From the NCBI GenBank assembly GCA_027460535.1, contig JAPZAR010000030.1, forward strand, positions 8,582-40,581: a DNA stretch of 32,000 nucleotides, given 5' to 3'. A program made the position numbers and the translations under genes. The stretch is from Candidatus Methanoperedens sp. (GTDB lineage: Archaea > Halobacteriota > Methanosarcinia > Methanosarcinales > Methanoperedenaceae). How positions within the stretch are numbered: position 1 is the stretch's first letter; each line of letters starts with the position of its first letter. The notes beneath the pieces were generated by a model. It saw nothing but the letters and a program-made list of their open reading frames with translations. It made no database searches and was not told where the DNA came from. This document shows, piece by piece, positions 5,939-21,709 of the stretch.

Positions 5939-7141
5939 ATGAACTTTGAAGAAGTCATCGCTCTTAGGAAAGCCTTTAAGTCGGTGAAAGAAAGGCAGGC
6001 ACAGAATGTGCCCAGAGACTTTAAGGGGAGGAAAAAGAGGCTCAAAGCTGACAGGGAGTTCTGCGTCGGGAATGAAGAGCTTCTTGCGAGGACTATCGAC
6101 AAGCTCAGGAAAAACGGCATAACAGTTCATTATGTAAAGGAAAAAAATGAGGCTATAAACGTAATCCTCGATGAGATAGGAAAGGAAAAACTCGTTGTAA
6201 AGTCCAAATCCAATGTCACCAAAGAAATAGAATTGACCAAAGCTCTTGAGAAAAAAGGATTGACCGTGGTTGAGACCGATATCGGAGATCGGATCTTGCA
6301 GCTGCTACATGCGAAACCTTCCCATCCTACGGGCCCTGTAACTCACCTTTCGGCTAAAGAAATAGCACATGGACTTTCAAAACACTATGGTACGTCTATA
6401 AAGGAAACTCCGGAAGACATTGTGAGAATAGTCAGGGAGGATGTGATCCTGAACATCGGGAAGGCAAAGATCGGCATCACCGGGGCCAATGCCATAACAG
6501 CCGAGGAAGGGTCCATCGTGCTGACCCATAATGAGGGGAATATCTACGAGGTCATGAGAAAAGAAAAGCATATAGTTGTGACCTCGATAGATAAGATATA
6601 TCCCGATATCGAATCGGCGATGAACATGCTGAAAATTTTATGCTACAATGCCACGGGTTCGACCATCCCTTCTTTCGTTGAGGTGATAAGCGGGGTCAGC
6701 AAGACCGCGGATGTGGAGAAGAAATTCATAAAAGGCGTTCATTATCCTTCTGAGGTCGTCGTGGTGCTGCTGGATAATAAAAGGAGCGAGCTTGCGGCGA
6801 AAGGGTTCAAGGAACTTCTCCAGTGCGTGGGATGCGGGAATTGCCTGCTCTGCTGCCCGATGTATAATACTGTTGGCAATGAATTCGCTCTGGATAATTA
6901 CCTCGGAGGGAAAGGGATCGCATATTATTCCCTCTGCAATAACGAAAAGAACGAGAAGCTGGAACTCTGTCTCACATGCGGTAAGTGCAAAGATAATTGC
7001 CCTGTAGAACTTGATATTCCAGCTCTGATAAAAAAGATCAGAAGTGAGGGAATTTCTTCAGAGATATATTATTTTTTGAAATCGCATGCGATGTGGGTAT
7101 ATTACCAGACCTGTCTTAGATTAGGGATGGAAAGCAAGTAG
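5939..7141 (+). CDS. LUD-domain (LutB/DUF162-like) protein with C-terminal 2x[4Fe-4S] ferredoxin motifs
   Basis: 400-aa ORF with two Cys clusters, CVGCGNCLLCCP and CLTCGKCKDNCP. The preceding region (ITGANAITAEEGSIVLTHNEGN) resembles the LUD/lactate-utilisation fold. Confidence 0.75.
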   Translation: MNFEEVIALRKAFKSVKERQAQNVPRDFKGRKKRLKADREFCVGNEELLARTIDKLRKNGITVHYVKEKNEAINVILDEIGKEKLVVKSKSNVTKEIELTKALEKKGLTVVETDIGDRILQLLHAKPSHPTGPVTHLSAKEIAHGLSKHYGTSIKETPEDIVRIVREDVILNIGKAKIGITGANAITAEEGSIVLTHNEGNIYEVMRKEKHIVVTSIDKIYPDIESAMNMLKILCYNATGSTIPSFVEVISGVSKTADVEKKFIKGVHYPSEVVVVLLDNKRSELAAKGFKELLQCVGCGNCLLCCPMYNTVGNEFALDNYLGGKGIAYYSLCNNEKNEKLELCLTCGKCKDNCPVELDIPALIKKIRSEGISSEIYYFLKSHAMWVYYQTCLRLGMESK

Positions 7142-7143
7142 CA

Positions 7144-7165
7144 TGCACCGATCGAGATTTGAACC
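7144..7165 (-). repeat. Orphan fragment of the tRNA-Gly 3' end (T-loop plus 3' acceptor strand); att-like direct repeat
   Basis: Matches the tRNA-Gly 3' end at 21638-21659 at 21 of 22 positions. The upstream sequence cannot form the T-stem or the rest of a cloverleaf, so this is a fragment rather than a gene. Confidence 0.65.
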
Positions 7166-7250
7166 GCCGCCCCCGACACTCGACCCCCCGCGCAGCCGTT
7201 GCGGACTCTGCGCACTTTGCGGTGAAGCCTCCTGATTCTTGCACGGAGCC
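7166..7250 (+). repeat. GC-rich dispersed repeat, copy A (degenerate)
   Basis: Core gcagccgttgcggactctgcgcactttgcggtgaagcctcctgattcttgca (7192-7243) aligns with the cores at 14305-14365, 14644-14703 and 15705-15746. Confidence 0.8.
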
Positions 7251-7447
7251 ACACCTCCCACCAAAAATCAAGCTCCGCAGATCACCCCGCTCTCCAGCAT
7301 GGCGCCGCTCTGAATCCTGCGCTCCTGTTCGCATATTCATGGTGTTTTTGAAGCCCTCAGCATGTAACAAGGCATATCATCTCGTAAATATACTAAATAA
7401 CCTGAATAAGCAGAGAAATAAAAGAGCGGACGAAGGTTGCGGTTATC

Positions 7448-7639
7448 ATGAAAGACAGGACTCATACCGAGCATATCGAGCGATGGGCCAAATTTATAAA
7501 AACACATCCTCGCTCAATCTGGATCAGGGAGGTTGGACCTCTGATAGACGCGCAGATAATCATGGCAAATACTTTCTATGAGCGCCTCGCTAAAGTTGAA
7601 GGTGGAATTGAGAAAATAAGAAAACTAAGGAGAATCTAA
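7448..7639 (+). CDS. Hypothetical 63-aa protein co-transcribed with cas6
   Basis: ATG ORF whose TAA stop (7637-7639) directly abuts the cas6 TTG start (7640). Its 3' end contains the cas6 Shine-Dalgarno AAGGAG (7627-7632). Helical, basic sequence; no family recognised. Confidence 0.45.
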   Translation: MKDRTHTEHIERWAKFIKTHPRSIWIREVGPLIDAQIIMANTFYERLAKVEGGIEKIRKLRRI

Positions 7640-8407
7640 TTGAGAAGTAAAATAACAGTCAGAAACATCTCAAACCTTCCTGTTAATTTCGATTATCAGT
7701 ATGGTCTGGCATCAATGCTCTATTTCAAACTTGCCGGCGCGGATGTCAAGCTGGCTAACGAAACTCATGCTCATCAGGGATTCAAGTTCTATACATTCTC
7801 CAATCTTGTGTTGATGAATAGAAAAACCTGTAAATCAGGTCTTTGTTTTGAGAGGGCATATTTTATCCTGTCCTCACCTGATGACAGATTCATCAAGAGT
7901 TTTACCGAAGGTCTTCTCCAACACTCAGAATTCTATTTAGATGGACCAGACGGCAGAGCAAATTTCGTAATTGAGCGCATCGAAATACTGAAAGAACCAT
8001 CTTTAGGCGACGAGTGCTGGTTCAAGACCGTATCTCCAATCTATGTCAAGACCATGCGTAAAGAGAATGAAAGTTTGAAAGAGGTCGATCTCTATCCTAC
8101 TGAGCCGAAGTTCTACGAGAACCTCCACAAGAACCTGACAGAACGCTTCACTGAATTTTATGGCAAAGCACCCCTTGATCATTTCGATGTAATTGAAACT
8201 GAGGGCATCAAGCCAAAGCGCATCAAAATATCAGAAGGCTATAGGCGATGCAATCTCATGAGTCTGCGAATCCAGGCAAGTCCTGAGCTTTTGAAGTTCG
8301 CTTACGATGCAGGGCTTGGGGAGAAGAATGCGATGGGGTTCGGATGTGTGGATGTTGTGGATCAGGGTCAACATATGAAAAATTTAACCGCAGATAAACG
8401 CAGATGA
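7640..8407 (+). CDS. cas6: Cas6 CRISPR repeat endoribonuclease
   Basis: 255-aa RAMP-like ORF. N-terminus MRSKITVRNISNLPVNFDYQYGLASMLYFKL and the C-terminal glycine-rich loop GLGEKNAMGFGCV are Cas6 hallmarks. TTG start lies 7 nt after AAGGAG. Position at the head of a I-B locus supports the call. Confidence 0.85.
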   Translation: MRSKITVRNISNLPVNFDYQYGLASMLYFKLAGADVKLANETHAHQGFKFYTFSNLVLMNRKTCKSGLCFERAYFILSSPDDRFIKSFTEGLLQHSEFYLDGPDGRANFVIERIEILKEPSLGDECWFKTVSPIYVKTMRKENESLKEVDLYPTEPKFYENLHKNLTERFTEFYGKAPLDHFDVIETEGIKPKRIKISEGYRRCNLMSLRIQASPELLKFAYDAGLGEKNAMGFGCVDVVDQGQHMKNLTADKRR

Positions 8408-8417
8408 ACGCAGATTT
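8388..8417 (-). repeat. Inverted fragment of the GC-rich repeat family overlapping the cas6 stop
   Basis: ccgcagataaacgcagatgaacgcagattt, a 10-nt cagatNaacg motif repeated about 3 times. Its reverse complement aaatctgcgttcatctgcgtttatctgcgg aligns with aaatctgcgttaatctgtgaaatctgcgg at 14754-14782. Confidence 0.65.
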
Positions 8418-8503
8418 ATTAATTGGGCTCTACATTCCGATTACCTGCAAGAAAGCCAAACTAAGAGATGTGCGGGAAAATAGTTTCACCCCGCTCCACA
8501 AAG

Positions 8504-8511
8504 TTTTATAA
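8504..8511 (+). promoter_or_regulatory. TATA box for the zinc-ribbon ORF / interference operon (leaderless start)
   Basis: TTTTATAA is centred about 29 nt upstream of the in-frame ATG at 8536. This is the usual archaeal TATA-to-TSS spacing and implies a leaderless or near-leaderless mRNA. Confidence 0.4.
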
Positions 8512-8535
8512 CCTCGCAGTTAATTTAAAGTGTTG

Positions 8536-8976
8536 ATGATGGTGGAGAAAAGAGGTGGAAAAGCAAAGAGCACAAAAATGTTGACAGTAGCATGCTCTAT
8601 CTGCGGCATGGACATGGACTGCCCGGAATCGATGCTGGGGGCGGAGCGGCATTTCTGCGCGCAATGTACTGATCTCATGGCTGAAGGCTATGAGCCTGAG
8701 GAACTGAAGATGAGCCCTGAGGATATAGCGCAGCATTTGCCCGGATGCGATGAGGTATCAATGCTGTTGATGGATCTTACCTTCGATGGCTACTGGAATA
8801 AAGTGCTGGAATACGGTATAGAGCATTTTGATAATGAAAGGCTTGCGAAACAGAGCTATCTCCGGGGGGCAACTTCGATGCTGGGGCTTTTGATAAGTGC
8901 GGGGATGCCGCCGGAGTTTCTGGATGAACTGGCGGAGGGGATAAGGGGGGAGAGGAGGATGGGGGAGGGGAAGTGA
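8536..8976 (+). CDS. Zinc-ribbon protein of unknown function, first cistron upstream of cas8b
   Basis: ORF open from 8530 (GTG), with ATGs at 8536 and 8539. CxxC-x18-CxxC motif (CSICGMDMDCPESMLGAERHFCAQC) followed by a helical acidic domain. The TGA stop (8974-8976) overlaps the cas8b GTG (8973) / ATG (8976). GC-rich, unlike the downstream cas genes. Confidence 0.55.
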   Translation: MMVEKRGGKAKSTKMLTVACSICGMDMDCPESMLGAERHFCAQCTDLMAEGYEPEELKMSPEDIAQHLPGCDEVSMLLMDLTFDGYWNKVLEYGIEHFDNERLAKQSYLRGATSMLGLLISAGMPPEFLDELAEGIRGERRMGEGK

Positions 8977-8978
8977 TG
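8926..8978 (-). repeat. Inverted, imperfect copy of the left end of the GC-rich repeat
   Basis: gaactggcggaggggataaggggggagaggaggatgggggaggggaagtgatg aligns colinearly with the reverse complement of 14268-14318 (gaactggcggcgcgggggtgagggaggatggggggcgggggagtggatgtg). The first 10 nt are identical. The gag(g)aggatggggg and agtg(g)atg blocks are conserved, with indels between them. Confidence 0.55.
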
Positions 8979-10367
8979 AATAACGATATCGAAATGAGAA
9001 ATGAATTTGTTGGGGATCCAATCGTTGATTCCGGTTTGCTCGCAATTAAATTATTGGGAAATAAAGAAATAAATGACTGTTCAAAAGAAGAATTAAAAAA
9101 GATTACAGATGAACTTATTGAGCTTTATCTAACACCTGCTTGGTCAAAAGATATTTTATCCATATTTCCAAATAGCACTTATGTTCAATATGCCAAGAAT
9201 TATGATAGAGAAGGAAAGTCCAAAGAGTTTCTATATGAATTAATAGAAGGTTTAGATAAATCTGAAAATGATGGGGATTATTGTATTTTTTGTGGGAAAC
9301 ATGCATACAAGAGGAAAGATAATAAACCTTTCGTCAAAACACAAATACCTTTAGTCGGTTCATCTGATTTTACTAATTTTTCCCCATCATTTAAAAATGG
9401 CATTGATATTTGTGCAAAATGCGCTTTGGCAATTCAATTTGCACCTATTCTATTTTATAAAACTGGTGGAAAACCAAGTTGCATAAGCTGTAACAATACG
9501 GACGTTATGAAAACATTTGGAGAAGAATGTATAGGATATATTACTCAAAAAAAATTACTGGGTGGTTATAAATCCAAAGACGTTTCTGGCATATTTGATG
9601 AAGGTTTTAAATCAACACAAAATGCCTTGTTTCATTTAGCATATAAAACCTCTACAAAATATAAAAAGTTGGGACTTTTAAAACAAAACGAAGAAATTGT
9701 AATATATCGCGTTGATAATTACAATCAAAATCCGGCCGGAGTTACAATACATAAAATACCGAATAATATATTCAGATTTGTTATCAATGTGATGACAAGT
9801 CCTCAATATAAAAAAAATTGGTATGATTTACTTTCAAAACATTATGCGAAATCTGATGCAAAAAGTGATTTTCCAGTCTGGAAAGTCAGTTATAATAGGA
9901 TTCATGATTCTTTATTAAAAAATGAAAGCATATTATGGGCTTTCAGAGATGATAACGAAAAGAAACCAACATTACCATGGATTATAGTTGAGTCCTATAT
10001 GGAGTTAGTGAGAAATATGAATAAACAGAGAATTGAGGGTATCAAAAATCTGGCTGATAAAATCGCCATCTGCATCGAAGAGAATAATAATAAAAAGAGA
10101 GTTAATGATATTATTTCAGCCAGAGATTTTCCAACTTTTAGAAATCAATTGAGATTAGTTTTCAGGGATTGGCAAAAATTAGGTAAGGAGCAACCTATGA
10201 TAACTTATGAAGATTATATCTCAGCAATCATCCCGGAAGATTATTCCAATTGGAAAGAAGTTCAGGATTTGATAATTATAAGGTTATACGAAAAATTGCA
10301 TAATATGCTATCGAGTGGAGTAATTGATGATGTCGAACAAGAAAAATCAATAGGTGATGAAGAATGA
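8973..10367 (+). CDS. cas8b: Type I-B large subunit Cas8b (Cst1-like)
   Basis: 464-aa ORF in the canonical position between cas6 and cas7. Cys pairs CIFCGKH...CAKCALAIQFAP recall the Cst1/Cas8 zinc motif. A 4-nt ATGA overlap couples it to cas7. The call rests mainly on position and size, because large subunits are poorly conserved. Confidence 0.7.
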   Translation: MMNNDIEMRNEFVGDPIVDSGLLAIKLLGNKEINDCSKEELKKITDELIELYLTPAWSKDILSIFPNSTYVQYAKNYDREGKSKEFLYELIEGLDKSENDGDYCIFCGKHAYKRKDNKPFVKTQIPLVGSSDFTNFSPSFKNGIDICAKCALAIQFAPILFYKTGGKPSCISCNNTDVMKTFGEECIGYITQKKLLGGYKSKDVSGIFDEGFKSTQNALFHLAYKTSTKYKKLGLLKQNEEIVIYRVDNYNQNPAGVTIHKIPNNIFRFVINVMTSPQYKKNWYDLLSKHYAKSDAKSDFPVWKVSYNRIHDSLLKNESILWAFRDDNEKKPTLPWIIVESYMELVRNMNKQRIEGIKNLADKIAICIEENNNKKRVNDIISARDFPTFRNQLRLVFRDWQKLGKEQPMITYEDYISAIIPEDYSNWKEVQDLIIIRLYEKLHNMLSSGVIDDVEQEKSIGDEE

Positions 10368-11407
10368 AAACTATAATAGGAACTTACTTAATTGATGCGC
10401 CTTTTTCGGCGCTGAATAATCGAGGAATAGATCAGGGAGCAGCGAACGAGAATGAAGTAGCAACCAAAGTAATTCAATCTCCAGAAGGAATGAGGCCATA
10501 CGTTTCAGCACAAGCGTTAAGATACTGGTGGAGAATGGTTTTAGAAAATAAATTTGGATGGAAATGCTCACCTGTGGAAAAAATTGGAAAAAATCAAGCT
10601 GTTACTAAAGGTGATCCGCTGGAATACGATGATGATGATATTTTTGGGTATATGAGTGCCAGAAAAATTGATACGGGAGAGAAGGATAAAAGTGATAAGC
10701 CAAAGATGGAAAATGTAACCGTGACAAGGGTATCTCCATTAAAATGCTCGCCTTTAATTGGATTTCCAATACGACCTACTTCAGATTTTGGTGTATTAGT
10801 GAGAAAACTTGAAACTGATCCAATACTTTTTACTCATCAATTTTATAGCAATATCTTTAAAGGTATTTTTGCGCTGGATATTGATTCCGTAGGGAAATTC
10901 ACAACAATTGATAAACCTGGTAGCAAAAACTTGTCAAAAGACCTTGCAGAAAAATATGAAAAAAATGGATTAAAAAAAGATGAAAAAACATATTCACTTC
11001 CGTTAGAAAAAAAGAAGACGCGAATTTCTGATACCATTAAAGCCTTGAAGTTTTTGAATGGCGGGGCAATGCAGACATTGCATCATACTGATGTAACTCC
11101 CAAGTTAATTATGCTGGCAGTATTGAATAATGGAAATAACATATTCATGGATGTAATGCCTCACAATAAATACGATAATGGATTGGTCAATATCGATGCA
11201 TTATCTGAGATGTTGGAGGATTATAAGGAATCACTGTTGAGCAAAGTCTATATCGGTAAATTATCGGGTTTTGGATCAGATAAAGACAAAGAATTAGAGA
11301 GTTTCAAAGCACCATCGGGAGTTAATGTTGTAATTACGACTCCAGTTAAAGCAATAGATCAATTCATAGAGGAGATATTAACTAATAATAAAATTATTGG
11401 CGAGTAA
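10364..11407 (+). CDS. cas7: Cas7 backbone subunit (Cst2/DevR-like)
   Basis: 347-aa ORF. N-terminal IIGTYLIDAPFSALNNRG...NE...K followed by YVSAQALRYWWR matches the Cas7/DevR signature as I remember it. Sits between cas8b and cas5. Confidence 0.85.
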   Translation: MKTIIGTYLIDAPFSALNNRGIDQGAANENEVATKVIQSPEGMRPYVSAQALRYWWRMVLENKFGWKCSPVEKIGKNQAVTKGDPLEYDDDDIFGYMSARKIDTGEKDKSDKPKMENVTVTRVSPLKCSPLIGFPIRPTSDFGVLVRKLETDPILFTHQFYSNIFKGIFALDIDSVGKFTTIDKPGSKNLSKDLAEKYEKNGLKKDEKTYSLPLEKKKTRISDTIKALKFLNGGAMQTLHHTDVTPKLIMLAVLNNGNNIFMDVMPHNKYDNGLVNIDALSEMLEDYKESLLSKVYIGKLSGFGSDKDKELESFKAPSGVNVVITTPVKAIDQFIEEILTNNKIIGE

Positions 11408-11408
11408 A

Positions 11409-12062
11409 ATGGAAGTTCTTCGTGTTGAAATACGGGCAATTACAGCCTCATTTAGATACCCCATGTTTGTGGTATCTTATCAGCCTACATATAAAATTCC
11501 TCCAATATCTACGATATACGGTTTGCTCTCCGCTGCAAAGGGTGAAAAAGTCAGTATTTATGATTTATCCATTGGTTATGATTTTACATCTAGAGGAAGT
11601 GGCGTTGATCTGGAGCGCATTCTGGAGTTCGGTGGAGGAGACAAAAATAAACCCGTTTCCTATCTTGGTAGCAATATAATACACAGGGAATTTTTATATG
11701 ATTGTATATTGACATTATATATATCTGATCTAGATTTTAAACAATATTTAGAGAATCCACGTTTCACTCTTTTACTTGGAAGGCAATCAGATTTAGCTAA
11801 GATAACAAAGATAAAAGAAGTGAAATTGATTCCAAAAGAAAATGTTGAAATATATAATACAATTATACCTTTCGATGGAAGAGTGCCAGGGCAAATCGTT
11901 GCTTTACCCTCTGATTATACTGACAAAGCTGAAAGAAAACCAATTGAAGTAAGAACTTATTGTATCGTAGAATCAAAACAACAGATTGAAAGGGGATACT
12001 ATGATACTGAGCTAAATAAGGGAGTTTTTATGCATGAGTTCAACAATAAAAGCCAAAAGTAA
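11409..12062 (+). CDS. cas5: Cas5 (Cas5t/Cas5h-like)
   Basis: MEVLRVEIRAITASFRYPMFVVSYQPTYKIPPISTIYGLLSAAKG is the canonical Cas5 N-terminal motif. The track start at 11397 (TTG) is an alternative start. Confidence 0.85.
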   Translation: MEVLRVEIRAITASFRYPMFVVSYQPTYKIPPISTIYGLLSAAKGEKVSIYDLSIGYDFTSRGSGVDLERILEFGGGDKNKPVSYLGSNIIHREFLYDCILTLYISDLDFKQYLENPRFTLLLGRQSDLAKITKIKEVKLIPKENVEIYNTIIPFDGRVPGQIVALPSDYTDKAERKPIEVRTYCIVESKQQIERGYYDTELNKGVFMHEFNNKSQK

Positions 12063-14214
12063 TGGCGAATCACTTGAAGAACATATAAATAATTGCCTTA
12101 ATATTTTTGCTCAACTAAAGGATATTTATCCAGATTTACAAAAATTTACAAATTATCCTTCTTTTTATAGTGATGCTTTTGATGCTTTGTTTTTTCATGA
12201 TTTTGGTAAAGCTGCAGAAGGTTTTCAAAAATCATTATCTCCAAAAGGAGAAAAATGGAAGTATAGGCATGAAATTCTTTCAACACCTTTTATTAACTGC
12301 CTGAACAAAGAAAATCTCGATTTTGTCAAGATCTTAGTGCTAACTCACCATAAAGATATTAATAAATTAGTCGAATATATTGAAGATAATGATTTTTTGG
12401 GGATTCGTTATGAAGAACGATTAGAGGAAATCAAACCTAATATAAATGCACTGAATGAAATAATAAAGAAATATCCAGAAATCTCTAAAAAGATATTAGG
12501 CTCAATAGAATGCAAGGTCGATATTATAGAGAAAATATCAAAAGATAAGTCGATATGGGAGGAAATAATACAAAAGAAAAGAATGAACTTTTCATCAAAA
12601 ATAGGAATCTTTGGAAAAGGGATGATAAATTCTTGTGATTATTTAGCTTCAAGTGGGATAAAAAAGATACTTAAACCACTACCAAGCTTGAGTGAAGTAT
12701 ATAATTTTAAGTCCTTTACGAGTGTTCAGGCAAAATGTTTATCAACAAAAGGTAATGCGATAATTATTTCACCAACTGGTTCTGGAAAAACGGAAGCATC
12801 TCTGTTCTGGGCTACAAATAATCTCGATAAATCACAAGGAAATAGAATATTTTATGTTTTACCCTACACTGCGAGTATAAACGCAATGTATAGGCGATTA
12901 TTGATGAAATTAAGCCCATATTATTCAGATGATGGTTGTGTATCGCTATTACATGGAAAAGCGACTTATTTTTTATATAAGATGTTCGAGGATGGTGATT
13001 TTAGAGAAATACATAATTTATCTAAAAAAATTTATAGTCCATACAAAGTAATGACGCCTTTTCAATGTTTAAAACACTTCTTTTCATTGAAAGGATATGA
13101 GATGGGATTATTAGAAATGTACCGCGGGAGATATATTTTTGATGAGATACACTCCTATGATGCCAAAACAGCGGGATTGATATTATCAATGTGCGAGTAT
13201 TTGATAGAAGAGAATGATGCTAAGATATTGATAATGTCTGCAACGATGCCATCATTTCTGAAAAATATGTTTTTAGATAATCTTCATATTGAAAATGAAA
13301 TGGTTATGGATAAAAAAGAGTTGAGCAAATACCTTCGCCACAAATGCAAGATAATCGATGGAGATATCCTTGAAAATATTGATTTAATAATAAAAAGATT
13401 GCAGAATAAAGAAAAAGTATTGGTTGTGTGTAATACAGTAAATAGAGCCCAGGATGTTTATAAATTATTGAGAGATGAAGTTAACGACTCTGCTTTGTTG
13501 CATGGCAGATTTATCTTGAAAGATAGAGAAGCAATTGAAAAAAATCTTGAAAATCTGAATTTATTAGTGGGTACACAAGTCATTGAAGTTTCATTGGATA
13601 TCGATTATGATGTATGTTTCTCTGAACCAGCTCCAATTGATGCTTTAATTCAGCGATTTGGAAGAATTAACAGACGAAAAAACAGCGATGGATTACCACT
13701 CAAAGGCATTTGCGATGTATTTGTTTTTTCAAAAGGTTCTGAAAATGATCGATATATCTATGATACAGAGATTGTAAATAAAACTTTAAAAGTTCTCAAT
13801 GAAATTGATTTATTGTTTGAAGATAAATTATATGAAGCAGTCGATGAAATATACATTAATGGTTTTGGCGATAAACTAAAAGAATTTGAAGATACCAAAA
13901 CTTCATTTAGAAAAATGATAGATCGTATAGTACCTTTCAATAATTCAAACACAAAAGAATCAGACTTTTATGATTTATTTAATTCCATAGAAGCGGTTCC
14001 TGAAAAATATCGGCATGAATATCTTGATTGTATCCGAAATAAAAAGTTATTCGATGCTATGCAATATTGTCTGCAATTAACGAACGGTCAATTTCAAAAA
14101 CTACTCAAAGAAGGACGGGTTGATTTCGAAAAAAAGATTTTTATAGAGGCAAAGTATGATCCAGAATTGGGATTATTGATAAATGAACATGAAGAGAATC
14201 AAAATATAATATAA
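12034..14214 (+). CDS. cas3: Cas3 HD nuclease-helicase fusion
   Basis: 726-aa ORF. N-terminal HD motifs (FFHDFGK, YRHEILS, LTHHK). SF2 helicase motifs I SPTGSGKTE, II FDEIHSYD, III MSATMP and VI QRFGRINRR. Overlaps the cas5 end by 29 nt. Confidence 0.92.
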   Translation: MSSTIKAKSNGESLEEHINNCLNIFAQLKDIYPDLQKFTNYPSFYSDAFDALFFHDFGKAAEGFQKSLSPKGEKWKYRHEILSTPFINCLNKENLDFVKILVLTHHKDINKLVEYIEDNDFLGIRYEERLEEIKPNINALNEIIKKYPEISKKILGSIECKVDIIEKISKDKSIWEEIIQKKRMNFSSKIGIFGKGMINSCDYLASSGIKKILKPLPSLSEVYNFKSFTSVQAKCLSTKGNAIIISPTGSGKTEASLFWATNNLDKSQGNRIFYVLPYTASINAMYRRLLMKLSPYYSDDGCVSLLHGKATYFLYKMFEDGDFREIHNLSKKIYSPYKVMTPFQCLKHFFSLKGYEMGLLEMYRGRYIFDEIHSYDAKTAGLILSMCEYLIEENDAKILIMSATMPSFLKNMFLDNLHIENEMVMDKKELSKYLRHKCKIIDGDILENIDLIIKRLQNKEKVLVVCNTVNRAQDVYKLLRDEVNDSALLHGRFILKDREAIEKNLENLNLLVGTQVIEVSLDIDYDVCFSEPAPIDALIQRFGRINRRKNSDGLPLKGICDVFVFSKGSENDRYIYDTEIVNKTLKVLNEIDLLFEDKLYEAVDEIYINGFGDKLKEFEDTKTSFRKMIDRIVPFNNSNTKESDFYDLFNSIEAVPEKYRHEYLDCIRNKKLFDAMQYCLQLTNGQFQKLLKEGRVDFEKKIFIEAKYDPELGLLINEHEENQNII

Positions 14215-14267
14215 AATTGCATCAAGAAATCTCATCTCTTATTGCGTTTCATATGGTGTCGCCCTGC

Positions 14268-14897
14268 CACATCCACTCCCCCGCCCCCCATCCTCCCTCA
14301 CCCCCGCGCCGCCAGTTCTTTGCGGACTCTGCGCCCTTTGCGGTGATGCCTCCTGATTCTTGCATGGCACCGCATGGAAAAACATCCTAGCAAATGCGAT
14401 ATATCCCATGCAATAAATCCGCGTTCATAAACCGGAACTTCGGTTTACGCAGTGTTGGGGTATGCGAAGCATATCCCTCGTTTGATAAAACTTTCATAAA
14501 GTTTTGCGTCCATCTGCGGTTTCGTTTTTCGCAGAAGCGCCGGAAATTTATCGCATTCTGTTTATAAAATTTCACCTCAAAGACTGTAAGGAGCCCGCCC
14601 TCCTGCACGTTCTTCCCCGACCCGCCGATACGCGCTCACTTCCGCGCCGCCTGCTCTTTGCGGACTCTGCGCGCTTTGCGGTGGTGCTCCCTGATTCGTG
14701 CACAGCGCCGCAGAAAAAAACAGTCTGAAGAGTGCGATATATGCCCTTGCAATAAATCTGCGTTAATCTGTGAAATCTGCGGATTCGTTTTTCGGAGAGT
14801 GATTAACCATTGTTCTCTGGAATATTTTTTGCGTTTTTGTGGTTGCTCCGGTCTCCATGAAGCGCCAGAAATTTATCTGGTGCTATATATATAATTC
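14268..14897 (+). repeat. Two tandem ~330-bp units of the GC-rich repeat family
   Basis: Unit cores begin with ctttgcggactctgcgc at 14318 and 14656. Each core is followed by a hairpin (14340-14373 and 14678-14711) and a tgcgatatat..tgcaataaatc(c/t)gcgtt block. Each unit ends in gaagcgcc(g/a)gaaatttatc (14534-14573 and 14859-14897). Confidence 0.85.
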
Positions 14898-14970
14898 TTT
14901 CTAAAAATTTATTGAAGCACAGTAAAATTTTGTGATAAGGCGTCTGAGGTTGTTTTGATCCATAACAATG

Positions 14971-14980
14971 CTTATATAAG
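14971..14980 (+). promoter_or_regulatory. TATA box for the vapBC pair (leaderless)
   Basis: cttatataag is centred about 25 nt upstream of the ATG at 15001. Confidence 0.4.
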
Positions 14981-15000
14981 ACAATATCAAACTATAATAT

Positions 15001-15231
15001 ATGGCTGAATTGAAAGTTACCATTCCTGAAGAACTCTGGAGAAAAATGGCAAGCTTTGAAATAGACTGGCATGCGATCACCAGAGATCTTCTCAAAAAGA
15101 AAGTCAATGAACTGAGTGATTTGAAATCCATTGTTTCCAAAAGCAAGATGACCGACGAGGATGCGTTAGAGCTTGGTAGAAAGGTTAATAAATCACTTGC
15201 AAAAAAATTCAAAACTTCAGCGATGGGATAA
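15001..15231 (+). CDS. VapB-type antitoxin (small, helical; partner of the PIN toxin)
   Basis: 76-aa ORF directly abutting the PIN gene (TAA then ATG). The pattern KVTIPEEL...W....R......V.......I..KSKMTDEDALELGRKV is what I recall for archaeal PIN-associated antitoxins. Confidence 0.6.
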   Translation: MAELKVTIPEELWRKMASFEIDWHAITRDLLKKKVNELSDLKSIVSKSKMTDEDALELGRKVNKSLAKKFKTSAMG

Positions 15232-15654
15232 ATGCTCCTCATTGTTGATGCCAACGTTGTTTTTTCGGTTCTCATAAAAGGTGGGAAAACATTAGACATT
15301 TTTTTTTTGAATAAAGCTAAAAAAAGATTTGATTTTGTAGCTCCTGAATTTCTTATGGTGGAAGTTGAAAAACACACCAGTGAGATTATTAAGAAAACTG
15401 GACTTTCAACAGAAGAGATTGGAAAGGTGTTTGATTTTCTTGAAAAAGAAATTGAATTTGTTTCATTTGAAGAGTTTGAAGAATTCTATAAAGAAGCAGA
15501 GCAAATATCTCCTGATCCCAATGATGTTCAGTATTTTGCGCTTGCTATGAAATTAAATGGGGCTATTTGGTCTAATGACAAGGCATTAAAAAAGCAGTTT
15601 GTAGTTGATGTGCTATCTACAGGGGAAATAATAAAATTAATGGAATTTGAATAG
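15232..15654 (+). CDS. vapC: PIN-domain ribonuclease toxin (VapC-like)
   Basis: 140-aa ORF. N-terminal acidic motif LIVDANVVFSVLIKGG, a mid glutamate (APEFLMVEVEKH), and the C-terminal motif DPNDVQYFALAMKLNGAIWSNDKAL. Confidence 0.8.
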   Translation: MLLIVDANVVFSVLIKGGKTLDIFFLNKAKKRFDFVAPEFLMVEVEKHTSEIIKKTGLSTEEIGKVFDFLEKEIEFVSFEEFEEFYKEAEQISPDPNDVQYFALAMKLNGAIWSNDKALKKQFVVDVLSTGEIIKLMEFE

Positions 15655-15676
15655 TTCATATTGTATTATTTTGTTA

Positions 15677-15760
15677 TCCCCCGCTCCCCATCCTCCCTCA
15701 CCCCCGCGCCGCCAGCTCTTTGCGGACTCTGCGCCCTCTGCGGTGGGTACGATTCGTACC
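15677..15760 (+). repeat. GC-rich repeat, copy E, ending in a 15-bp palindrome
   Basis: cccccgctccccatcctccctcacccccgcgccgccagctctttgcggactctgcgccctctgcggtg aligns with 14279-14345. The hairpin of the other copies is replaced by the palindrome GGTACGAtTCGTACC (15746-15760). Confidence 0.8.
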
Positions 15761-15828
15761 AATCTGTGCAAGGACAAAGAGTCATCTAAAAAGATGAACC
15801 CAACCGTATATTTCATTCATCCCAAACC

Positions 15829-15866
15829 TTTATAAATTCAAAAATGAATAAATTCATTCAAAAATG
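15829..15866 (+). promoter_or_regulatory. Promoter/operator upstream of the wHTH-NTase gene
   Basis: TATA box TTTATAAA at 15829-15836. Inverted repeat AATGAAT-aa-ATTCATT at 15843-15858. Direct repeats ttcaaaaatg at 15837-15846 and 15857-15866, 20 nt apart. All lie between the TATA box and the ATG at 15878. Confidence 0.4.
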
Positions 15867-15877
15867 GTTATATAACT

Positions 15878-16477
15878 ATGAAATTCCACAATGTTCTTGA
15901 CGAGATATTAGGCAATAGAACAAAGGTGAAGCTGCTAAGGGCATTTTTCACCTATCTTGAAAAAGAATTCACAGAAAGCGAACTCCAGAGGATAGCGGGG
16001 ATACCGCAGGCGAGCGTTCACAGGAACGTAAAGTTTCTCCTCGCGAATGGACTTCTTGACAGGGAACGCATCGGAAAGGCAAATCTGTATTCGCTGAACA
16101 AAGAGCATATTCTTTATGCTCTTCTACAGAACATTTTTGAGAATGAAAAAAACCTTCTCTCTGAACTTAAAAAGTCGCTTAAAGGTTCGATTGAAAGCTT
16201 TTCTGGGATAGAGTTAGCAGTACTCTTCGGAAGCGTTTTAAAAGGCACTGAGAGAGCGGACAGCGATATAGATATTTTCATCGTCTGTAAAGCAGATAAA
16301 TCACAGGTGGAAGAAGAGATGAAAAACCTGATCCAGGTTATCGGAAATAAATTCGGAAACCCGGTATCGCCGATGATAAAGAATGATACAGAGATGAAAG
16401 ACATAAGAAGCAGTTCAATATACAAAGAATTAAAAAGAGGTGAAGTACTCTTTAAGCGCGAGGGATTTGAATGGTGA
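15878..16477 (+). CDS. Winged-helix DNA-binding domain fused to a minimal (Pol-beta superfamily) nucleotidyltransferase
   Basis: 199-aa ORF. The N-terminal part (TKVKLLRAFF...FTESELQRIAGIPQASVHRNVKFLLANGLLDRERIGKANLYSLN) looks like a wHTH. The C-terminal part carries the NTase motif LFGSVLKGTERADSDIDIFIV (G[SG]...D.D). Confidence 0.8.
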   Translation: MKFHNVLDEILGNRTKVKLLRAFFTYLEKEFTESELQRIAGIPQASVHRNVKFLLANGLLDRERIGKANLYSLNKEHILYALLQNIFENEKNLLSELKKSLKGSIESFSGIELAVLFGSVLKGTERADSDIDIFIVCKADKSQVEEEMKNLIQVIGNKFGNPVSPMIKNDTEMKDIRSSSIYKELKRGEVLFKREGFEW

Positions 16478-16562
16478 AAGGTCTATCAACAAAACCTGCA
16501 CAGGAAATGTTCAGGGATGCAGAACGTCTAGTGGAATGGGTTGAAAATAGGAACATGGTGGC

Positions 16563-17129
16563 ATGAATCCGCAAGATGTAACTTTGGAAGAAAAAGAAAG
16601 ACCCCAACCTGAAGACATCATGGCCGGTGCCATGCGCATCACAGGCATTAAAGTAACATACTACTTCATCTGCCATACCAAACTCTGGCTGTTTTCGCAC
16701 AATATCACGCTTGAGAAAGAGAATGACAATGTGAATATTGGAAAACTCCTGCATGAAGACCGCTATAAGCGCGACTCAAAAGAGATAACAATCGACCAGA
16801 CGATAAGCATCGATTTCATCCGGAAGGGTGATACCATTGTTCTCCATGAAATAAAAAAAACAAAAAGCATGGAAGTGGCACATCGCTGGCAGATGCTATA
16901 TTACCTGTATTACCTGAAATCAAAAGGTATCAGCGCCACAGGCGAAATAAATTATCCCCTCGTTAGCAGGAAAGAAGAGATAGTGCTTCTTGAAAAAGAT
17001 GAATTGGAAATGGAAAATGTGATAAATGATATCAGGAAGATCGCAATGGGAAGGATGCCGCAACCTAAAAGGATAAAGATCTGCCCGAAATGCGCTTATT
17101 TCGAATTCTGTTTTGGAGATGAAGTATGA
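16563..17129 (+). CDS. cas4: Cas4 RecB-like nuclease with Fe-S cysteines
   Basis: [18 protein letters not shown] supplies the N-terminal Cys. Nuclease motifs IDF...LHEIKK. C-terminal [10 protein letters not shown] supplies three Cys. The true start may be the internal ATG at 16620 or 16632. An ATGA overlap couples it to cas1. Confidence 0.85.
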
Positions 17130-18115
17130 AGGAAGATTATTATATCACACAGGACGGCGGCCTTACAAGGCATGAAAATACGGTATATTTCGAGAACGAA
17201 AACACAAAACGCGCCCTTCCGGTAAATAAGATATACTCAATATACGCATACGGCAGGCTCAGCTTTTCATCCGGGGTCGTGGATTATCTTGCAAAGAGCG
17301 GGATACCGATACACTTCTTTAATTATTATGGTTTTTACGAAGGCTCATTCTATCCGCGCGAAACGCTGATAAGCGGCGATCTGACCGTGAAGCAGGCATC
17401 GAATTATCTCGACAGCGCAAAGAGACTGATACTTGCAAAATCCTTTGTTGAAGGCGCTTGCGGCAATATCCTGAAAAATCTCAACTATTACGCGCGGGAG
17501 ATGAAAAGTCTTGAAACACATATCAGCGGCATCGAATCCGAGATCGCGAGACTGCCGGGGACAGCAACTATCCCTGAGGTCATGAATGTAGAAGGACGGA
17601 TAAGGAATATTTATTATACGGCGCTTGATGAGATATTCCCTGAGAATTACAGGATAATCAAAAGGTCAAGGATGCCGCCGGCGAACAGGATGAACACGTT
17701 AATCAGTTTCGGGAATTCCCTGATGTACACAACAACTCTTTCGGAAATATACAATACCCAGTTAAACCCCACTATTTCTTTCCTTCATGAGCCATTTGAA
17801 AGGAGATTCTCGCTTGCTCTTGATGTAAGCGAGATATTCAAACCCATAATTATCGACAGGATCATCCTGAAGCTTGTGAATAAGAACATGCTTGACGATG
17901 CTTGTTTCAGGGGGGAGATAGGAGATATGCTGCTCAGTGAAAAAGGGAAAAAGCTGTTCCTGGCAGAATATAATGAGAAGCTTTCCACAACTATCAAACA
18001 CAGAGGACTGGAACAAAATGTTTCTTTCAAACGGCTTATAAGACTTGAATTGTATAAACTCGTGAAGCATTGCCTTGGTGAAAAGGATTACAAACCTCTC
18101 ATTATGTGGTGGTAA
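17126..18115 (+). CDS. cas1: Cas1 integrase
   Basis: 329-aa ORF with the typical Cas1 layout. N-terminal beta domain ([19 protein letters not shown]), then the catalytic helical domain ([11 protein letters not shown]...[12 protein letters not shown]...[22 protein letters not shown]). Confidence 0.95.
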
Positions 18116-18381
18116 TCTTGTATGTAATAATTGTTTATGATGTGGGGGTGGAAAGGGTGAACAAGGTGAGGATTTACCTCAAGCAGTATCTTAATTGGGT
18201 GCAGAATAGTGTGCTGGAAGGGGAGCTTACAGAACCTGAATACATGAAGATAATGAATGGGCTCAGGGATGTAATAGATGAATCCCAGGATAATGTTATC
18301 TGTTATAAATCGAGAGATCGGAAGTATCTCGCTATTGATGAAATAGGAACTAAAAAGGCTGAGATCACAACAATAATCTGA
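18106..18381 (+). CDS. cas2: Cas2
   Basis: [36 protein letters not shown] is the canonical Cas2 N-terminus. GTG at 18106 overlaps the cas1 stop. TTG at 18118 (giving MYVIIVYDV) is an equally plausible start. Confidence 0.9.
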
Positions 18382-18576
18382 TGTCGATGATCTAAAGTCG
18401 TGGATCTTTATAAAGCAAATACAAAACCTGGGATGCACGACTGAAAATTCTATTTTTGCAAAGGTTTTTGTGGAATGAGTTCTATTTATATTTGAGAGAA
18501 AATCAATAGACGATACCTGAAAAATTGTCTGTTTTTTCAACCAAATTCAACCGAAAATCCAGCTGGAAAAAGCTTG
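18382..18576 (+). promoter_or_regulatory. CRISPR leader (AT-rich) with candidate TATA boxes
   Basis: 195-bp AT-rich spacer between cas2 and the first repeat. TATA-like TTTATAAA around 18406-18413 and TTTATATT around 18484-18491. Orientation follows from the repeat 3' handle ATTGAAAT. Confidence 0.6.
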
Positions 18577-21408
18577 GTTAAAATCAGCCCTTGGAGGGAT
18601 TGAAATCCTGGAGGAAATGCTCTTGCCTAAATCTGTTATAAAGTTAAAATCAGCCCTTGGAGGGATTGAAATACGTAGATGTACCCGGTGTTCGCGTCAA
18701 GGTTTGTCAGTTAAAATCAGCCCTTGGAGGGATTGAAATACTATATACGTGCATACATACATAGATATGTATGCTGGTTAAAATCAGCCCTTGGAGGGAT
18801 TGAAATTATTCTGCTCCTCAGGCGATGCCGCCTTCCTTGAGGTTAAAATCAGCCCTTGGAGGGATTGAAATGGCGGTGATCGTATGAAATGCATCCACGC
18901 GATATATCGTTAAAATCAGCCCTTGGAGGGATTGAAATATGATATGGTGCCTTGTGCGCGAGGGCAGCCTCCTTGGTTAAAATCAGCCCTTGGAGGGATT
19001 GAAATGACTCTCCGGCGCTGAGCCTTTGGCTGCTGTATCACGTTAAAATCAGCCCTTGGAGGGATTGAAATTACTGAGATCGTGAAGCTGCGAACGCCCC
19101 TGGGGAGCGTTAAAATCAGCCCTTGGAGGGATTGAAATGTGTGAGCCCGAACTTTTCCGAGGTCAGTTCCGCCAGTTAAAATCAGCCCTTGGAGGGATTG
19201 AAATCGTGGTACCACGTGCTCCCCTCAACCCCATAGCGTGCGTTAAAATCAGCCCTTGGAGGGATTGAAATACGGAACGAACACGCACAAAATCCGTCGT
19301 GGCGTTATGTTAAAATCAGCCCTTGGAGGGATTGAAATAAGGCAAAACGCTCGAACAGGATCACCTTCATGGACGGTTAAAATCAGCCCTTGGAGGGATT
19401 GAAATCTGCGTATGCAGTGCGTTTCCGATCTTGTTCACGCGTTGTTAAAATCAGCCCTTGGAGGGATTGAAATTCTCTATGATCCTTATGATCGGGGGTT
19501 CATACTACCAGTTAAAATCAGCCCTTGGAGGGATTGAAATTTAAGACTATGTCGTCTTTTGAGCAGATCGGTAAGAAGTTAAAATCAGCCCTTGGAGGGA
19601 TTGAAATATATCTGTTTTTTCAGATATAGAAATTTTGAAATATTGTTAAAATCAGCCCTTGGAGGGATTGAAATATCATAATTATTATGTTTTGAGAGTA
19701 GATCATAAGGAGTTAAAATCAGCCCTTGGAGGGATTGAAATGTCTCAGCACAGACGACAAGCAACCAGACCTACACGAGTTAAAATCAGCCCTTGGAGGG
19801 ATTGAAATAGCGATGTAAAGAACATCCAGGGAGCGCACTTCAAATGTTAAAATCAGCCCTTGGAGGGATTGAAATACGCCTAGGCTTTCCTTGCCTCTTC
19901 CCTGACTTCTTGTTAAAATCAGCCCTTGGAGGGATTGAAATTCACTTGTAGCCCTTGAGGAAGTTGAGCGTATCGAGGTTAAAATCAGCCCTTGGAGGGA
20001 TTGAAATCAATAAGAACCTCCTCTACCCTTGGTTGTTATTTCATGTTAAAATCAGCCCTTGGAGGGATTGAAATAGCAAACAACGATACCGAGCAGCCCG
20101 GGTAATTCTCGTTAAAATCAGCCCTTGGAGGGATTGAAATATTCGCCCTCGCTCTCGGTCATGGTTCCCTATAAAACGTTAAAATCAGCCCTTGGAGGGA
20201 TTGAAATGAAGTGGACGAGTGCGGATGGAATTGAAGTCACCATGGTTAAAATCAGCCCTTGGAGGGATTGAAATCATCAACTTGCACCTCACACTTAAGA
20301 TAATGCTCAATGTTAAAATCAGCCCTTGGAGGGATTGAAATAAGGAATGGAGATGAAGATTTCTGCAGGCATACAAGTTAAAATCAGCCCTTGGAGGGAT
20401 TGAAATACGGTTTGATGAGCTTCTTGATAAAATACAGAACCAAGTTAAAATCAGCCCTTGGAGGGATTGAAATATGCAAGGTGCTGCTACAACTGCGAAC
20501 CGTGTGAATCGTTAAAATCAGCCCTTGGAGGGATTGAAATTTATAACTACTTCGACGTTCCCGCTTGCTGTGCTGAGTTAAAATCAGCCCTTGGAGGGAT
20601 TGAAATCTTGATACTTCCTGATTGGTGAAGTTCGCCCATCCGTGTTAAAATCAGCCCTTGGAGGGATTGAAATGGGTCTTTAGCAAGCTACCTGAGTATG
20701 TGCAAAAGAATGTTAAAATCAGCCCTTGGAGGGATTGAAATATTAATCAAGCAAACCGTTCAAGGAGGAAGGCTTCGGTTAAAATCAGCCCTTGGAGGGA
20801 TTGAAATATTTCGACTGCTCCATTTGCAAATATCACGAGCGTGGTTAAAATCAGCCCTTGGAGGGATTGAAATGACAATAGTGACATACAACACAAACGG
20901 AATTGCAGGTGTTAAAATCAGCCCTTGGAGGGATTGAAATATAGCGAATCGAGGCACGACACCAAGTCCGTGCGGAAGTTAAAATCAGCCCTTGGAGGGA
21001 TTGAAATAGATTAGTTAAACTAACTAACGGCTCTGTATATGATGTTAAAATCAGCCCTTGGAGGGATTGAAATATGTAACCAAAAAAGAACCAGATGAAA
21101 TAATCCCGGCGTTAAAATCAGCCCTTGGAGGGATTGAAATCAATGATATCATAGGGATGTTGTTATATTAATCCCTTGTTAAAATCAGCCCTTGGAGGGA
21201 TTGAAATCGAATACCTGGAAACATGCCGTCATGCCCGGACGAGGGTTAAAATCAGCCCTTGGAGGGATTGAAATGTGATCAAGGCGCTCCCGGACCTCAA
21301 TGCCCTGGTCGGTTAAAATCAGCCCTTGGAGGGATTGAAATGCAGACGTAATCTTAGCTGGGGCAAGTATCCCACTTAGTTAAAATCAGCCCTTGGAGGG
21401 ATTGAAAT
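18577..21408 (+). CRISPR. CRISPR array: 43 repeats of GTTAAAATCAGCCCTTGGAGGGATTGAAAT (30 nt), 42 spacers of 35-38 nt
   Basis: I located every repeat start by hand, from 18577, 18643, 18710 ... to 21312, 21379, with a period of 65-68 nt. I noticed no repeat variants. The repeat has a CCCT-TGG-AGGG mini-hairpin and ends in ATTGAAAT. It closely resembles the Haloferax I-B repeat ...CCCTTGTGGGATTGAAGC. Confidence 0.98.
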
Positions 21409-21637
21409 GGAGTATCTATCATGTGGGCACCGAGGGCATTAATTTGCATATCTTGATGTTGATTTTGTCCGGTTAACATTTAATAAGAAATCATCAATAA
21501 ATAACCGCTGTCCATGAATATTTTAATGCTAGAAAGATGATAATAAATAGTGGATTCATTTTAGATTCTTTTGAAGCATTAGGAATCGTTCAAAAGTATC
21601 GATAATCTTTTTGCCCGGTTTTTTTTAAAACCGAAAT

Positions 21638-21709
21638 GCACCGATCGGGATTTGAACCCGAGTTATTAGCTTGGAAGGCTAAAGTCATAGCCGCTAGACC
21701 ATCGGTGCT
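21638..21709 (-). tRNA. tRNA-Gly (anticodon UCC)
   Basis: Reverse complement is GCACCGATGGTCTAGCGGCTATGACTTTAGCCTTCCAAGCTAATAACTCGGGTTCAAATCCCGATCGGTGCA. Acceptor stem GCACCGA/TCGGTGC, D-arm GTC..GAC, anticodon stem TTAGC/GCTAA with loop CT-TCC-AA, and T-arm TCGGG-TTCAAAT-CCCGA. 72 nt, with no encoded CCA. Confidence 0.92.

Follow-up and report, generated by a model that had tools for sequence, protein, structure and literature searches.

In a 32,000-nucleotide stretch of chromosomal DNA from a Candidatus Methanoperedens archaeon (hereafter, the window), several junctions of a type I-B CRISPR-Cas locus carry copies of an intergenic repeat. Here we identify this element as a real, lineage-specific mosaic repeat of Candidatus Methanoperedens that is apparently undescribed, as literature searches on Methanoperedens repeats, on islands, and with sequence words returned no description of it. 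Our best reading is that it most resembles the bacterial interspersed mosaic elements (BIMEs), the pneumococcal BOX elements, and the Correia-type elements, and that it is neither a structured RNA nor a classical MITE (miniature inverted-repeat transposable element). As to its function, we favor, with a probability of roughly 0.45, a DNA-level junction element that would provide homology for cassette exchange and array change together with terminator and promoter signals.

The core of the element, TTGCGGACTCTGCGCNCTNTGCGGTG (26 nt), occurs four times on the forward strand of the window without a mismatch, where chance would give none (expectation 0, no match in shuffled sequences). The limits of the copies were set by an nhmmer search with a profile built from two tandem units, which extended the four copies and added a fragment in inverse orientation (Table 1). 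Four to five copies are packed into 9 kb of the window, and the remaining 23 kb holds none. A preliminary description of this DNA, made from the sequence alone, had recorded the four direct copies, two tandem units of about 330 nt with offsets of 338 nt (core to core) and 325 nt (end to end), the arms of a hairpin, and TATA-like unit ends. All of these were borne out, and the unit ends recur in other genomes. It had also listed two inverse fragments. That at 8388-8417 is real and forms part of a longer tail match, 97% identical to the tail of locus L019 and 94% identical to that of L035 (recovered loci are designated by L numbers). The fragment reported at 8926-8978 proved to be a mere G-rich stretch that head-specific profiles missed even at E ≤ 10. 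The two tandem units, located after cas3, share 67% identity over 317 nt, and unit 2 is 83% identical to the L019 element. The solo head w15, about 85 nt upstream of the TATA box of the nucleotidyltransferase (NTase) gene, shares 95.7% identity with the unit-1 head across 69 nt, and the two form direct repeats that bracket the remaining unit sequence and vapBC. The claim that copies sit at every module boundary is overstated. Among about eight junctions in the locus, three have head or unit copies, one has the tail fragment, and one has the unsupported G-rich stretch; the claim fails at the NTase|cas4, cas2|array, and array|tRNA junctions, where no copy was found.

When about 20 copies, from both the window and further Methanoperedens loci, were aligned, the modules appeared in this order: a C-rich head, the core, a short hairpin with an A-run after it, a mid block (cagcctgacgagcgcGATATATGcccgtgcaataa), three 10-nt ATCTGCGTTC units (ATCTGCG) forming the tail, T5 runs, and a BRE/TATA-like end in which GAAGCGCCRGAAATTTATC precedes a TATA-like box. 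In this alignment, the core is invariant over 28 nt and consists of three 9-nt CTYTGCG units (CTTTGCGGA-CTCTGCGCG-CTTTGCGGT), whereas the flanking modules vary. The head is G-poor and comes in two subtypes (A and B), with a G-C skew of -0.2 to -0.6 in 16 of 17 copies that is kept where the sequence differs. Short forms of 70-120 nt (w15, L009b, L004, and L034) are solo copies of head and core only, and three solo copies lose the alignment immediately past TGCGGTGGG. Long units of 170-340 nt are arranged head-to-tail in arrays, their lengths changing by the gain or loss of whole modules. The L020 array contains at least six units of 170-320 nt, one of them split by an inserted 1.8-kb segment. 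As in BIMEs and other clusters of repetitive extragenic palindromes (REPs), head, hairpin, mid, tail, and end modules thus cluster extragenically as a mosaic, in varied combinations and arrays. Every long unit ends in a TATA-like box of varied sequence (TTTATAAAA, TATATATATA, TTATATTTTT, TTATATAATT, or AATTATATTG), located 18-27 nt before the start of the next unit, and T5-T7 runs are found on both strands. No conserved open reading frame (ORF) spans the units; as no frame remains open, a hidden small protein was rejected. A G-quadruplex was also discarded as a conserved feature, since the canonical minus-strand motif is present in just 7 of 17 heads.

Several insertions were seen within units. 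The insert of about 100 nt in unit 1 of the window consists of four small near-perfect hairpins (14429-14446, 14457-14477, 14487-14505, and 14513-14535) and is absent from other family members. The L020 segment (~130-1925) has inverted aattgagcc/ggctcaatt at its ends and an ORF (310-1833, + strand) for a product of 508 aa without a Pfam match, and may be an unclassified insertion sequence of archaea. In one metagenome, L020 (2400-2520, - strand) and L025 (120-240) have an extra GC-rich, hairpin-rich insert (containing aaaccccgccagcggcggcgcctcaccggggtctggggtcgcaaccccagcg) in place of the tail, and L025 also carries a short tandem repeat, CACGGAT, at ~290-330.

The element also occurs outside this locus. 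When species-representative genomes were scanned for the exact core, four Methanoperedens metagenome-assembled genomes (MAGs) gave one match each, and 15 bacterial loci were also returned. A metagenome scan added six contigs, most of which start or stop inside an element; the GC content is Methanoperedens-like in five of them, and the sixth (L022, GC 0.62) is apparently chimeric. Profile searches of the recovered loci gave matches in L004, L009, L019-L025, L034, and L035. Besides the window, at least eight Methanoperedens loci carry copies. Phage and plasmid collections gave no match in BLAST searches with the units, and four pattern scans of viral contigs gave a single core-only match, L033. 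In keeping with the placement first proposed, the copies elsewhere again border cas, toxin-antitoxin, and NTase modules. The L019 element directly follows cas7-cas5-cas3 and is the last piece before a convergent core gene (flavodiiron), and a long unit lies upstream of cas4-cas1 in L025. In L009 and L021-L024, two copies flank a UPF0175/DUF3368 toxin-antitoxin pair that is followed by a 187-aa ORF. The L004 copy adjoins a PIN gene, and in L015 the core alone is present, with a helicase/DUF559 gene on one side and a reductase gene on the other. A conserved module of head plus NTase was considered and dropped, as the NTase of the window and the 187-aa ORF beside the L009 and L021 heads are unrelated. 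In L033, an IMG/VR contig, two solo CTTTGCG x3 cores (1841-1866 and 7593-7620) each lie 30-60 nt upstream of a gene start, and one of them is followed by the short tandem repeat TCTCTGTG x2.

Comparisons between close strains place the differences at the edges of the element. L034 (Cas3 91% identical, DNA 92%) is collinear with the window to 14334, inside the unit-1 core, and then lacks 14335-14951 (617 nt), keeping only a 77-nt truncated head after cas3, with the deletion junction at a shared TTTG. Collinearity continues through vapBC to 15679, and homology ends exactly at the 5' edge of w15 (15679/15680). Window positions 15680-16591, comprising this head and the NTase gene, are replaced by an unrelated 580-nt module before collinearity resumes from cas4. 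In L035 (Cas3 88% identical, DNA 89%), the array after cas3 is another one, with three or more units and an inverted core arm among them, and a reverse toxin-antitoxin pair comes next. The cas4-cas1-cas2 genes of L025 are 93% identical to those of the window, with a different upstream arrangement (a long unit and another module). The conservation of the element is far above that of the flanking genes. The window and L019 elements share 83-94% nucleotide identity (97% in the tail fragment), whereas their cas genes have no detectable DNA similarity and their Cas3 proteins are only 24% identical. The elements therefore behave as units that move or homogenize independently of the surrounding genes and that coincide with points of cassette difference. 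Searching with the VapC protein for further strain variation brought up no locus copies other than identical ones.

The element is missing from more distant relatives of this I-B locus, those in which Cas3 is ≤78% identical. Logan contigs of about 5.4 kb spanning cas8b-cas3, of which there are many, were considered as ending at flanking element copies; this was rejected, as those with Cas3 identity ≤78% hold no element. Among the relatives, L042 is compact and free of accessory genes (cas6-8b-7-5-3-4-1-2), L036 has cas4 directly after cas3 and a HEPN-MNT pair between cas6 and cas8b, and L037 has no element, yet encodes two AAA-ATPases between cas3 and cas4. The cas6|cas8b and cas3|cas4 junctions are recurrent insertion points for accessory genes in this I-B lineage, as seen in L036, L037, and the window. 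A HEPN-MNT pair is also found within the rearranged cas4-cas1-cas2 block of L040.

The whole 14.5-kb CRISPR-Cas locus (7166-21636) is itself an insertion into the 3' end of a tRNA-Gly gene, an integration absent from the preliminary description. This conclusion follows from a 22-nt repeat of the tRNA 3' end at the left border and from an empty site in a relative, L051 (LUD protein 82% identical), where an intact tRNA-Gly gene (7204-7275) comes directly after the LUD stop codon. At the same LUD/tRNA-Gly site, L052 has 2.2 kb of other DNA. The locus is therefore like other tRNA-integrated defense islands in being bracketed by a tRNA gene and a direct copy of its 3' part and in having an empty counterpart; it is unlike them in that no integrase gene is left, none of the annotated island ORFs encoding an integrase or recombinase. 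The head of w7 abuts the att-like repeat at the island edge, and in six other assemblies the break comes 235-441 nt past the LUD gene, within w7 or shortly after it. Downstream of w7, positions 7372-7430 are homologous to the head-promoter-gene junction of L009 and L021, and w7 therefore came within a larger segment. The remnant (7372-7447) comprises a promoter and a gene 5' end homologous to the start of the 187-aa ORF in L009 and L021, with its ATG changed to ATA. It is followed by a 63-aa ORF (7448-7639) with a weak DUF8150 match.

As a junction element, the repeat would work through its near-identical copies, which may supply homology for the insertion, replacement, or deletion of accessory cassettes (vapBC, UPF0175/DUF3368, NTase genes, and small ORFs) at the cas6|cas8b and cas3|cas4 junctions and at the edges of cas islands. 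Arrays would grow and shrink by unequal or microhomology-mediated recombination. Each long unit would also bring oligo-T terminator signals and an outward-facing archaeal promoter, so that neighboring modules may be insulated from each other and separately transcribable. The unit ends fit such a putative terminator-plus-promoter cassette, and window genes with a recognizable TATA box (e.g., copA, vapB, and NTase) have a TTATATA/TTTATAAA-type box 30-48 nt upstream of their start. A recombination scar or module shuffling, one of the two origins first suggested for the repeat, fits the edge breakpoints as well.

Several points weigh against this interpretation. We infer the recombination mechanism from strain comparisons, and promoter and terminator activity from the geometry of the sequence only. 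The material is small, about 25 copies in roughly eight independent loci, and the junctions without a copy named above do not fit. Breakpoints at the repeats could follow from repeats gathering in gaps that were already variable. The element points toward the 3' end of a convergent gene in L019, L009a, and L035, and a promoter role is therefore not universal. Among its annotated ORFs, the window has no recombinase, transposase, or other candidate trans-acting factor. Finally, that the 28-nt core stays invariant from species to species suggests specific recognition by a protein or RNA, which simple homology-driven recombination does not account for.

BIMEs and REP clusters of E. coli and the BOX elements of pneumococci are built from extragenic modules whose number and order vary (boxA-boxB(n)-boxC), carry short imperfect palindromes, are often clustered after gene ends, and can influence nearby transcription. 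The Methanoperedens element is likewise extragenic, noncoding, modular, and clustered, with a candidate imperfect palindrome, and may likewise act on the transcription of its neighbors. It differs in its archaeal host, in units of up to 340 nt with an archaeal TATA-like box, in an apparently low copy number, in the concentration of its copies at defense-gene junctions instead of genome-wide, and in the weakness of its palindrome. We know of no RAYT gene for it. Similar to the Correia elements (CREE) of Neisseria, it is a small intergenic repeat with putative promoter and processing signals for its neighbors and a hot spot of strain variation; however, it has neither the clear terminal inverted repeats nor the TA target duplication of Correia elements. 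Integron attC sites and the Vibrio cholerae repeats also separate cassettes, many of them toxin-antitoxin, in variable arrays where the cassettes differ between strains and the repeats are conserved. The present element differs from these in that it has no integron integrase and no R''-L''/L'-R' palindrome, its modules are multi-gene or empty, and its repeats reach 340 nt and are tandem.

The bacterial matches to the core are the right arm of a palindrome of about 75 nt made of CTCTGCG nonamers, found in MAGs of Chloroflexota, Acidobacteriota, Verrucomicrobiota, and Desulfobacterota. In Anaerolineae MAGs (L002, L008, L012, L013, and L018), this palindrome lies inside a genuine MITE of about 150 nt, with terminal inverted repeats TGTAYTGGTCAAC...GTCTGACNACTACA (TGTAYTGGTCA...TGACNACTACA) and unusually long target duplications of 14-16 bp (e.g., attttgtgccataat and cttttaccggagttc). 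Bacterial and archaeal elements have in common the TGCGGACTCTGCGCNCTNTGCGGTG core, with three 9-nt CTCTGCG units ending in GGTG; in a subset of copies this is followed by an AT-rich block (ATATATG) and by tandem repeats of 10 nt (ATCTGC). The bacterial ones differ in having both palindrome arms, as well as the terminal inverted repeats and target duplications in Anaerolineae. An inverted left arm is kept in some of the archaeal copies. With a profile made from the archaeal sequence after the core, nothing was found in the bacterial loci at E ≤ 10; extended homology was therefore rejected, and the demonstrable similarity is limited to the core. One could imagine a cross-domain family of TGCG nonamers in whose archaeal branch the units became programmed "switch" sites, tandem, strand-skewed, equipped with their own promoters, and targeting recombination, for an integron-like cassette exchange that dispenses with an integron integrase and possibly uses a core-recognizing protein. 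We consider this scenario very unlikely.

The preliminary description took an A-T to G-C change between the hairpins of the two tandem units as compensatory and as an argument for a selected RNA or single-stranded DNA structure. Neither claim was supported across the family. Pair counting over 12 hairpins showed that 79% of the cells of the 11-bp stem are paired and that 4 of the 11 pairs are often broken. At the position in question, 10 of 12 family members have A.C, which does not pair, and 54 of 500 shuffles reach the same covariation. Folding of whole units on both strands gave z-scores of -1.06, +0.30, -1.07, and -1.33, and RNAalifold on eight units gave -18.6 kcal/mol with a penalizing covariation term (+1.59). 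Rfam was searched with the window and 16 loci at the gathering threshold and with positions 7000-16000 at E ≤ 5; the only matches were tRNA genes (window and L012) and others at chance level, and a known RNA family was rejected on this basis. With no covariation, weak folding scores, and no Rfam family, a selected structure is not supported. A CRISPR repeat-like regulatory RNA (CreTA or cr-like) was also discarded: the cas intergenic gaps hold no degenerate repeat; outside the array, the 30-nt repeat is matched at no more than 17-18 of 30 positions, and none of these best matches is within the elements. It is nevertheless conceivable, if unlikely, that a long unit is a small noncoding RNA gene, whose transcript of about 200 nt would be driven by the TATA box of the preceding unit, open with a C-rich, CCUCC-containing, anti-Shine-Dalgarno-like head followed by the core and hairpin, stop at the CGTTTTTCG T-runs, and base-pair with defense or toxin-antitoxin mRNAs. 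The conserved spacing between TATA box and unit, with an equally conserved intervening stretch (TTTCACCNCANAGA), the T5 runs after the tail, the C-over-G skew of the heads, and two L020b hairpin changes that are G.U-compatible on the + strand only would all fit such a gene. However, the folding of the + strand (-1.06 and -1.07) gives no thermodynamic signal, solo heads (w7, w15, L009b, and L034) have no upstream unit-end promoter, and unit length varies by whole modules.

It is also possible, but quite unlikely in our view, that the core (TGCG-N5-TGCG-N5-TGCG) and the 10-nt periodic tail are arrays of transcription factor sites that co-regulate defense modules, as operators or upstream activating sites and not as recombination substrates. 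In favor of such sites, the core does not change across species whereas its flanks do, and protein-binding arrays typically show direct repeats with a period of 9-10 bp. At vapB (L034), NTase (w15), the 187-aa ORF (L009b and L021), and the L015 reductase gene (a core-only copy), heads are found 40-135 nt upstream of the start, in the same orientation, and the solo cores of L033 precede two gene starts. Co-regulation leaves the synteny breaks at the element unexplained, however, and accommodates poorly the arrays of six gene-less units and the copies facing convergent genes; no candidate regulator was found. Alternatively, the head or core could be a site-specific recombination site, similar to integron attC or att, whose recombinase would be supplied by another part of the genome or by an extrachromosomal element of Methanoperedens and would integrate the cassettes as circles. 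Direct head copies do bracket cassettes, solo heads in three loci all diverge right past TGCGGTGGG, breakpoints cluster within or at the end of the core, and w7 abuts the tRNA att-like repeat. We regard this as highly improbable, as neither the window nor any recovered locus encodes an integrase (no tyrosine recombinase was found in the window or related loci), the architecture is not attC-like (R''/R'), modules are multi-gene, empty tandem units exist, and the searched viral, phage, and plasmid collections hold nothing save the core-only match in L033. We give equally little credence to a transposing non-autonomous element, either a MITE or a REP-like element moved by a RAYT-type enzyme, that favors itself and the AT-rich gaps of defense islands. 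The high identity between unrelated loci, head subfamilies A and B common to several genomes, the presence of the same 28-nt core as the internal palindrome of the Anaerolineae MITE, and the left arm kept in some archaeal copies speak for mobility. Yet an inverted-repeat search of units and solo copies found only short internal AT-rich words and no terminal inverted repeats, no target-site duplication was found at the edges of w15, L034, L009b, and L021 when flanks were compared between strains, each of four Methanoperedens species has one exact core per representative genome, and the likeness to the bacterial MITE is one of core only. No transposase, including RAYT, was found in the window. 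The MITE origin raised in the preliminary description was therefore not supported in its classical form, given the absence of terminal inverted repeats and target duplications and the apparently low copy number.

From a biological perspective, the exchange of modules in cas operons and defense islands has mostly been inferred from gene order, and the DNA at the junctions has rarely been identified. Here a discrete repeat marks such junctions in an uncultivated, environmentally important methane-oxidizing archaeon, and close strains differ exactly there. The repeat provides a concrete sequence for questions of recombination, promoter or insulator activity, and protein binding, as well as a practical marker of variable defense regions; Methanoperedens assemblies fragment at these loci because of the repeat copies. 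The invariant core hints at a specific recognition factor, and its presence in bacterial palindromes and a MITE raises the question of a shared factor or of transfer between domains. If the element is merely an accumulating passenger, the finding shrinks to a new lineage-specific repeat family.

Table 1 Element copies, island borders, and genes of the CRISPR-Cas locus in the window
Feature	Position	Strand	Details
Partial tRNA-Gly 3' end copy, att-like left border	7144-7165	+	21/22 match to 21637-21658; directly after LUD-gene stop
Copy w7	7168-7270	+	C-rich head, core 7199-7224, hairpin; begins at att-like repeat; nhmmer E=2.5e-14, exact core
cas6	7640-8407		
Inverted tail fragment	8377-8428	-	3 x 10-nt ATCTGCG; nhmmer E=0.002; 10-nt periodic TGCG motif
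G-rich stretch, not supported as member	8945-8970	-	ORF148/cas8b overlap; 77% complementary to head over 26 nt
cas8b	8973-10367		
cas7	10364-11407		
cas5	11397-12062		
cas3	12034-14214		
Tandem unit 1	14260-14599	+	Head, core 14320-14345, hairpin 14338-14375, insert 14429-14535; promoter-like end, GAAGCGCCGGAAATTTATC at 14534-14552, then TTTATAAAA at 14561-14569
Tandem unit 2	14596-14907	+	Type-B head, core 14658-14683, hairpin, mid block, tail 14751-14785, T-runs; promoter-like end, 14859-14877, then tatatatata 14884-14893
Ribbon-helix-helix antitoxin/PIN (vapBC)	15001-15654		
Solo head w15	15673-15785	+	Head, core 15720-15745; nhmmer E=3.7e-18
Helix-turn-helix nucleotidyltransferase (NTase)	15878-16477		
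cas4 / cas1 / cas2	16563-18381		
CRISPR array	18.6-21.4 kb		~43 repeats
tRNA-Gly(TCC), right border	21637-21708	-	Rfam 66.3 bits; ARAGORN

The homologs of neighboring proteins are 72-94% identical, and those with a named source are mostly labeled Candidatus Methanoperedens; NCBI assembly GCA_027460495.1 also holds the same locus. A preprint on archaeal Tn7 was judged not relevant to it. Between cas6 and cas8b, ORF148 (8530-8976) encodes a 148-aa zinc-ribbon protein (CxxC...CxxC) with no Pfam match, which is kept in close strains (L026, and partially in L035) and whose G-rich 3' end overlaps the cas8b start. The inverted tail fragment covers about 10 codons at the end of cas6, including the stop (8405-8407), and the C-terminus of Cas6 (…KNLTADKRR) appears to be derived from the repeat.

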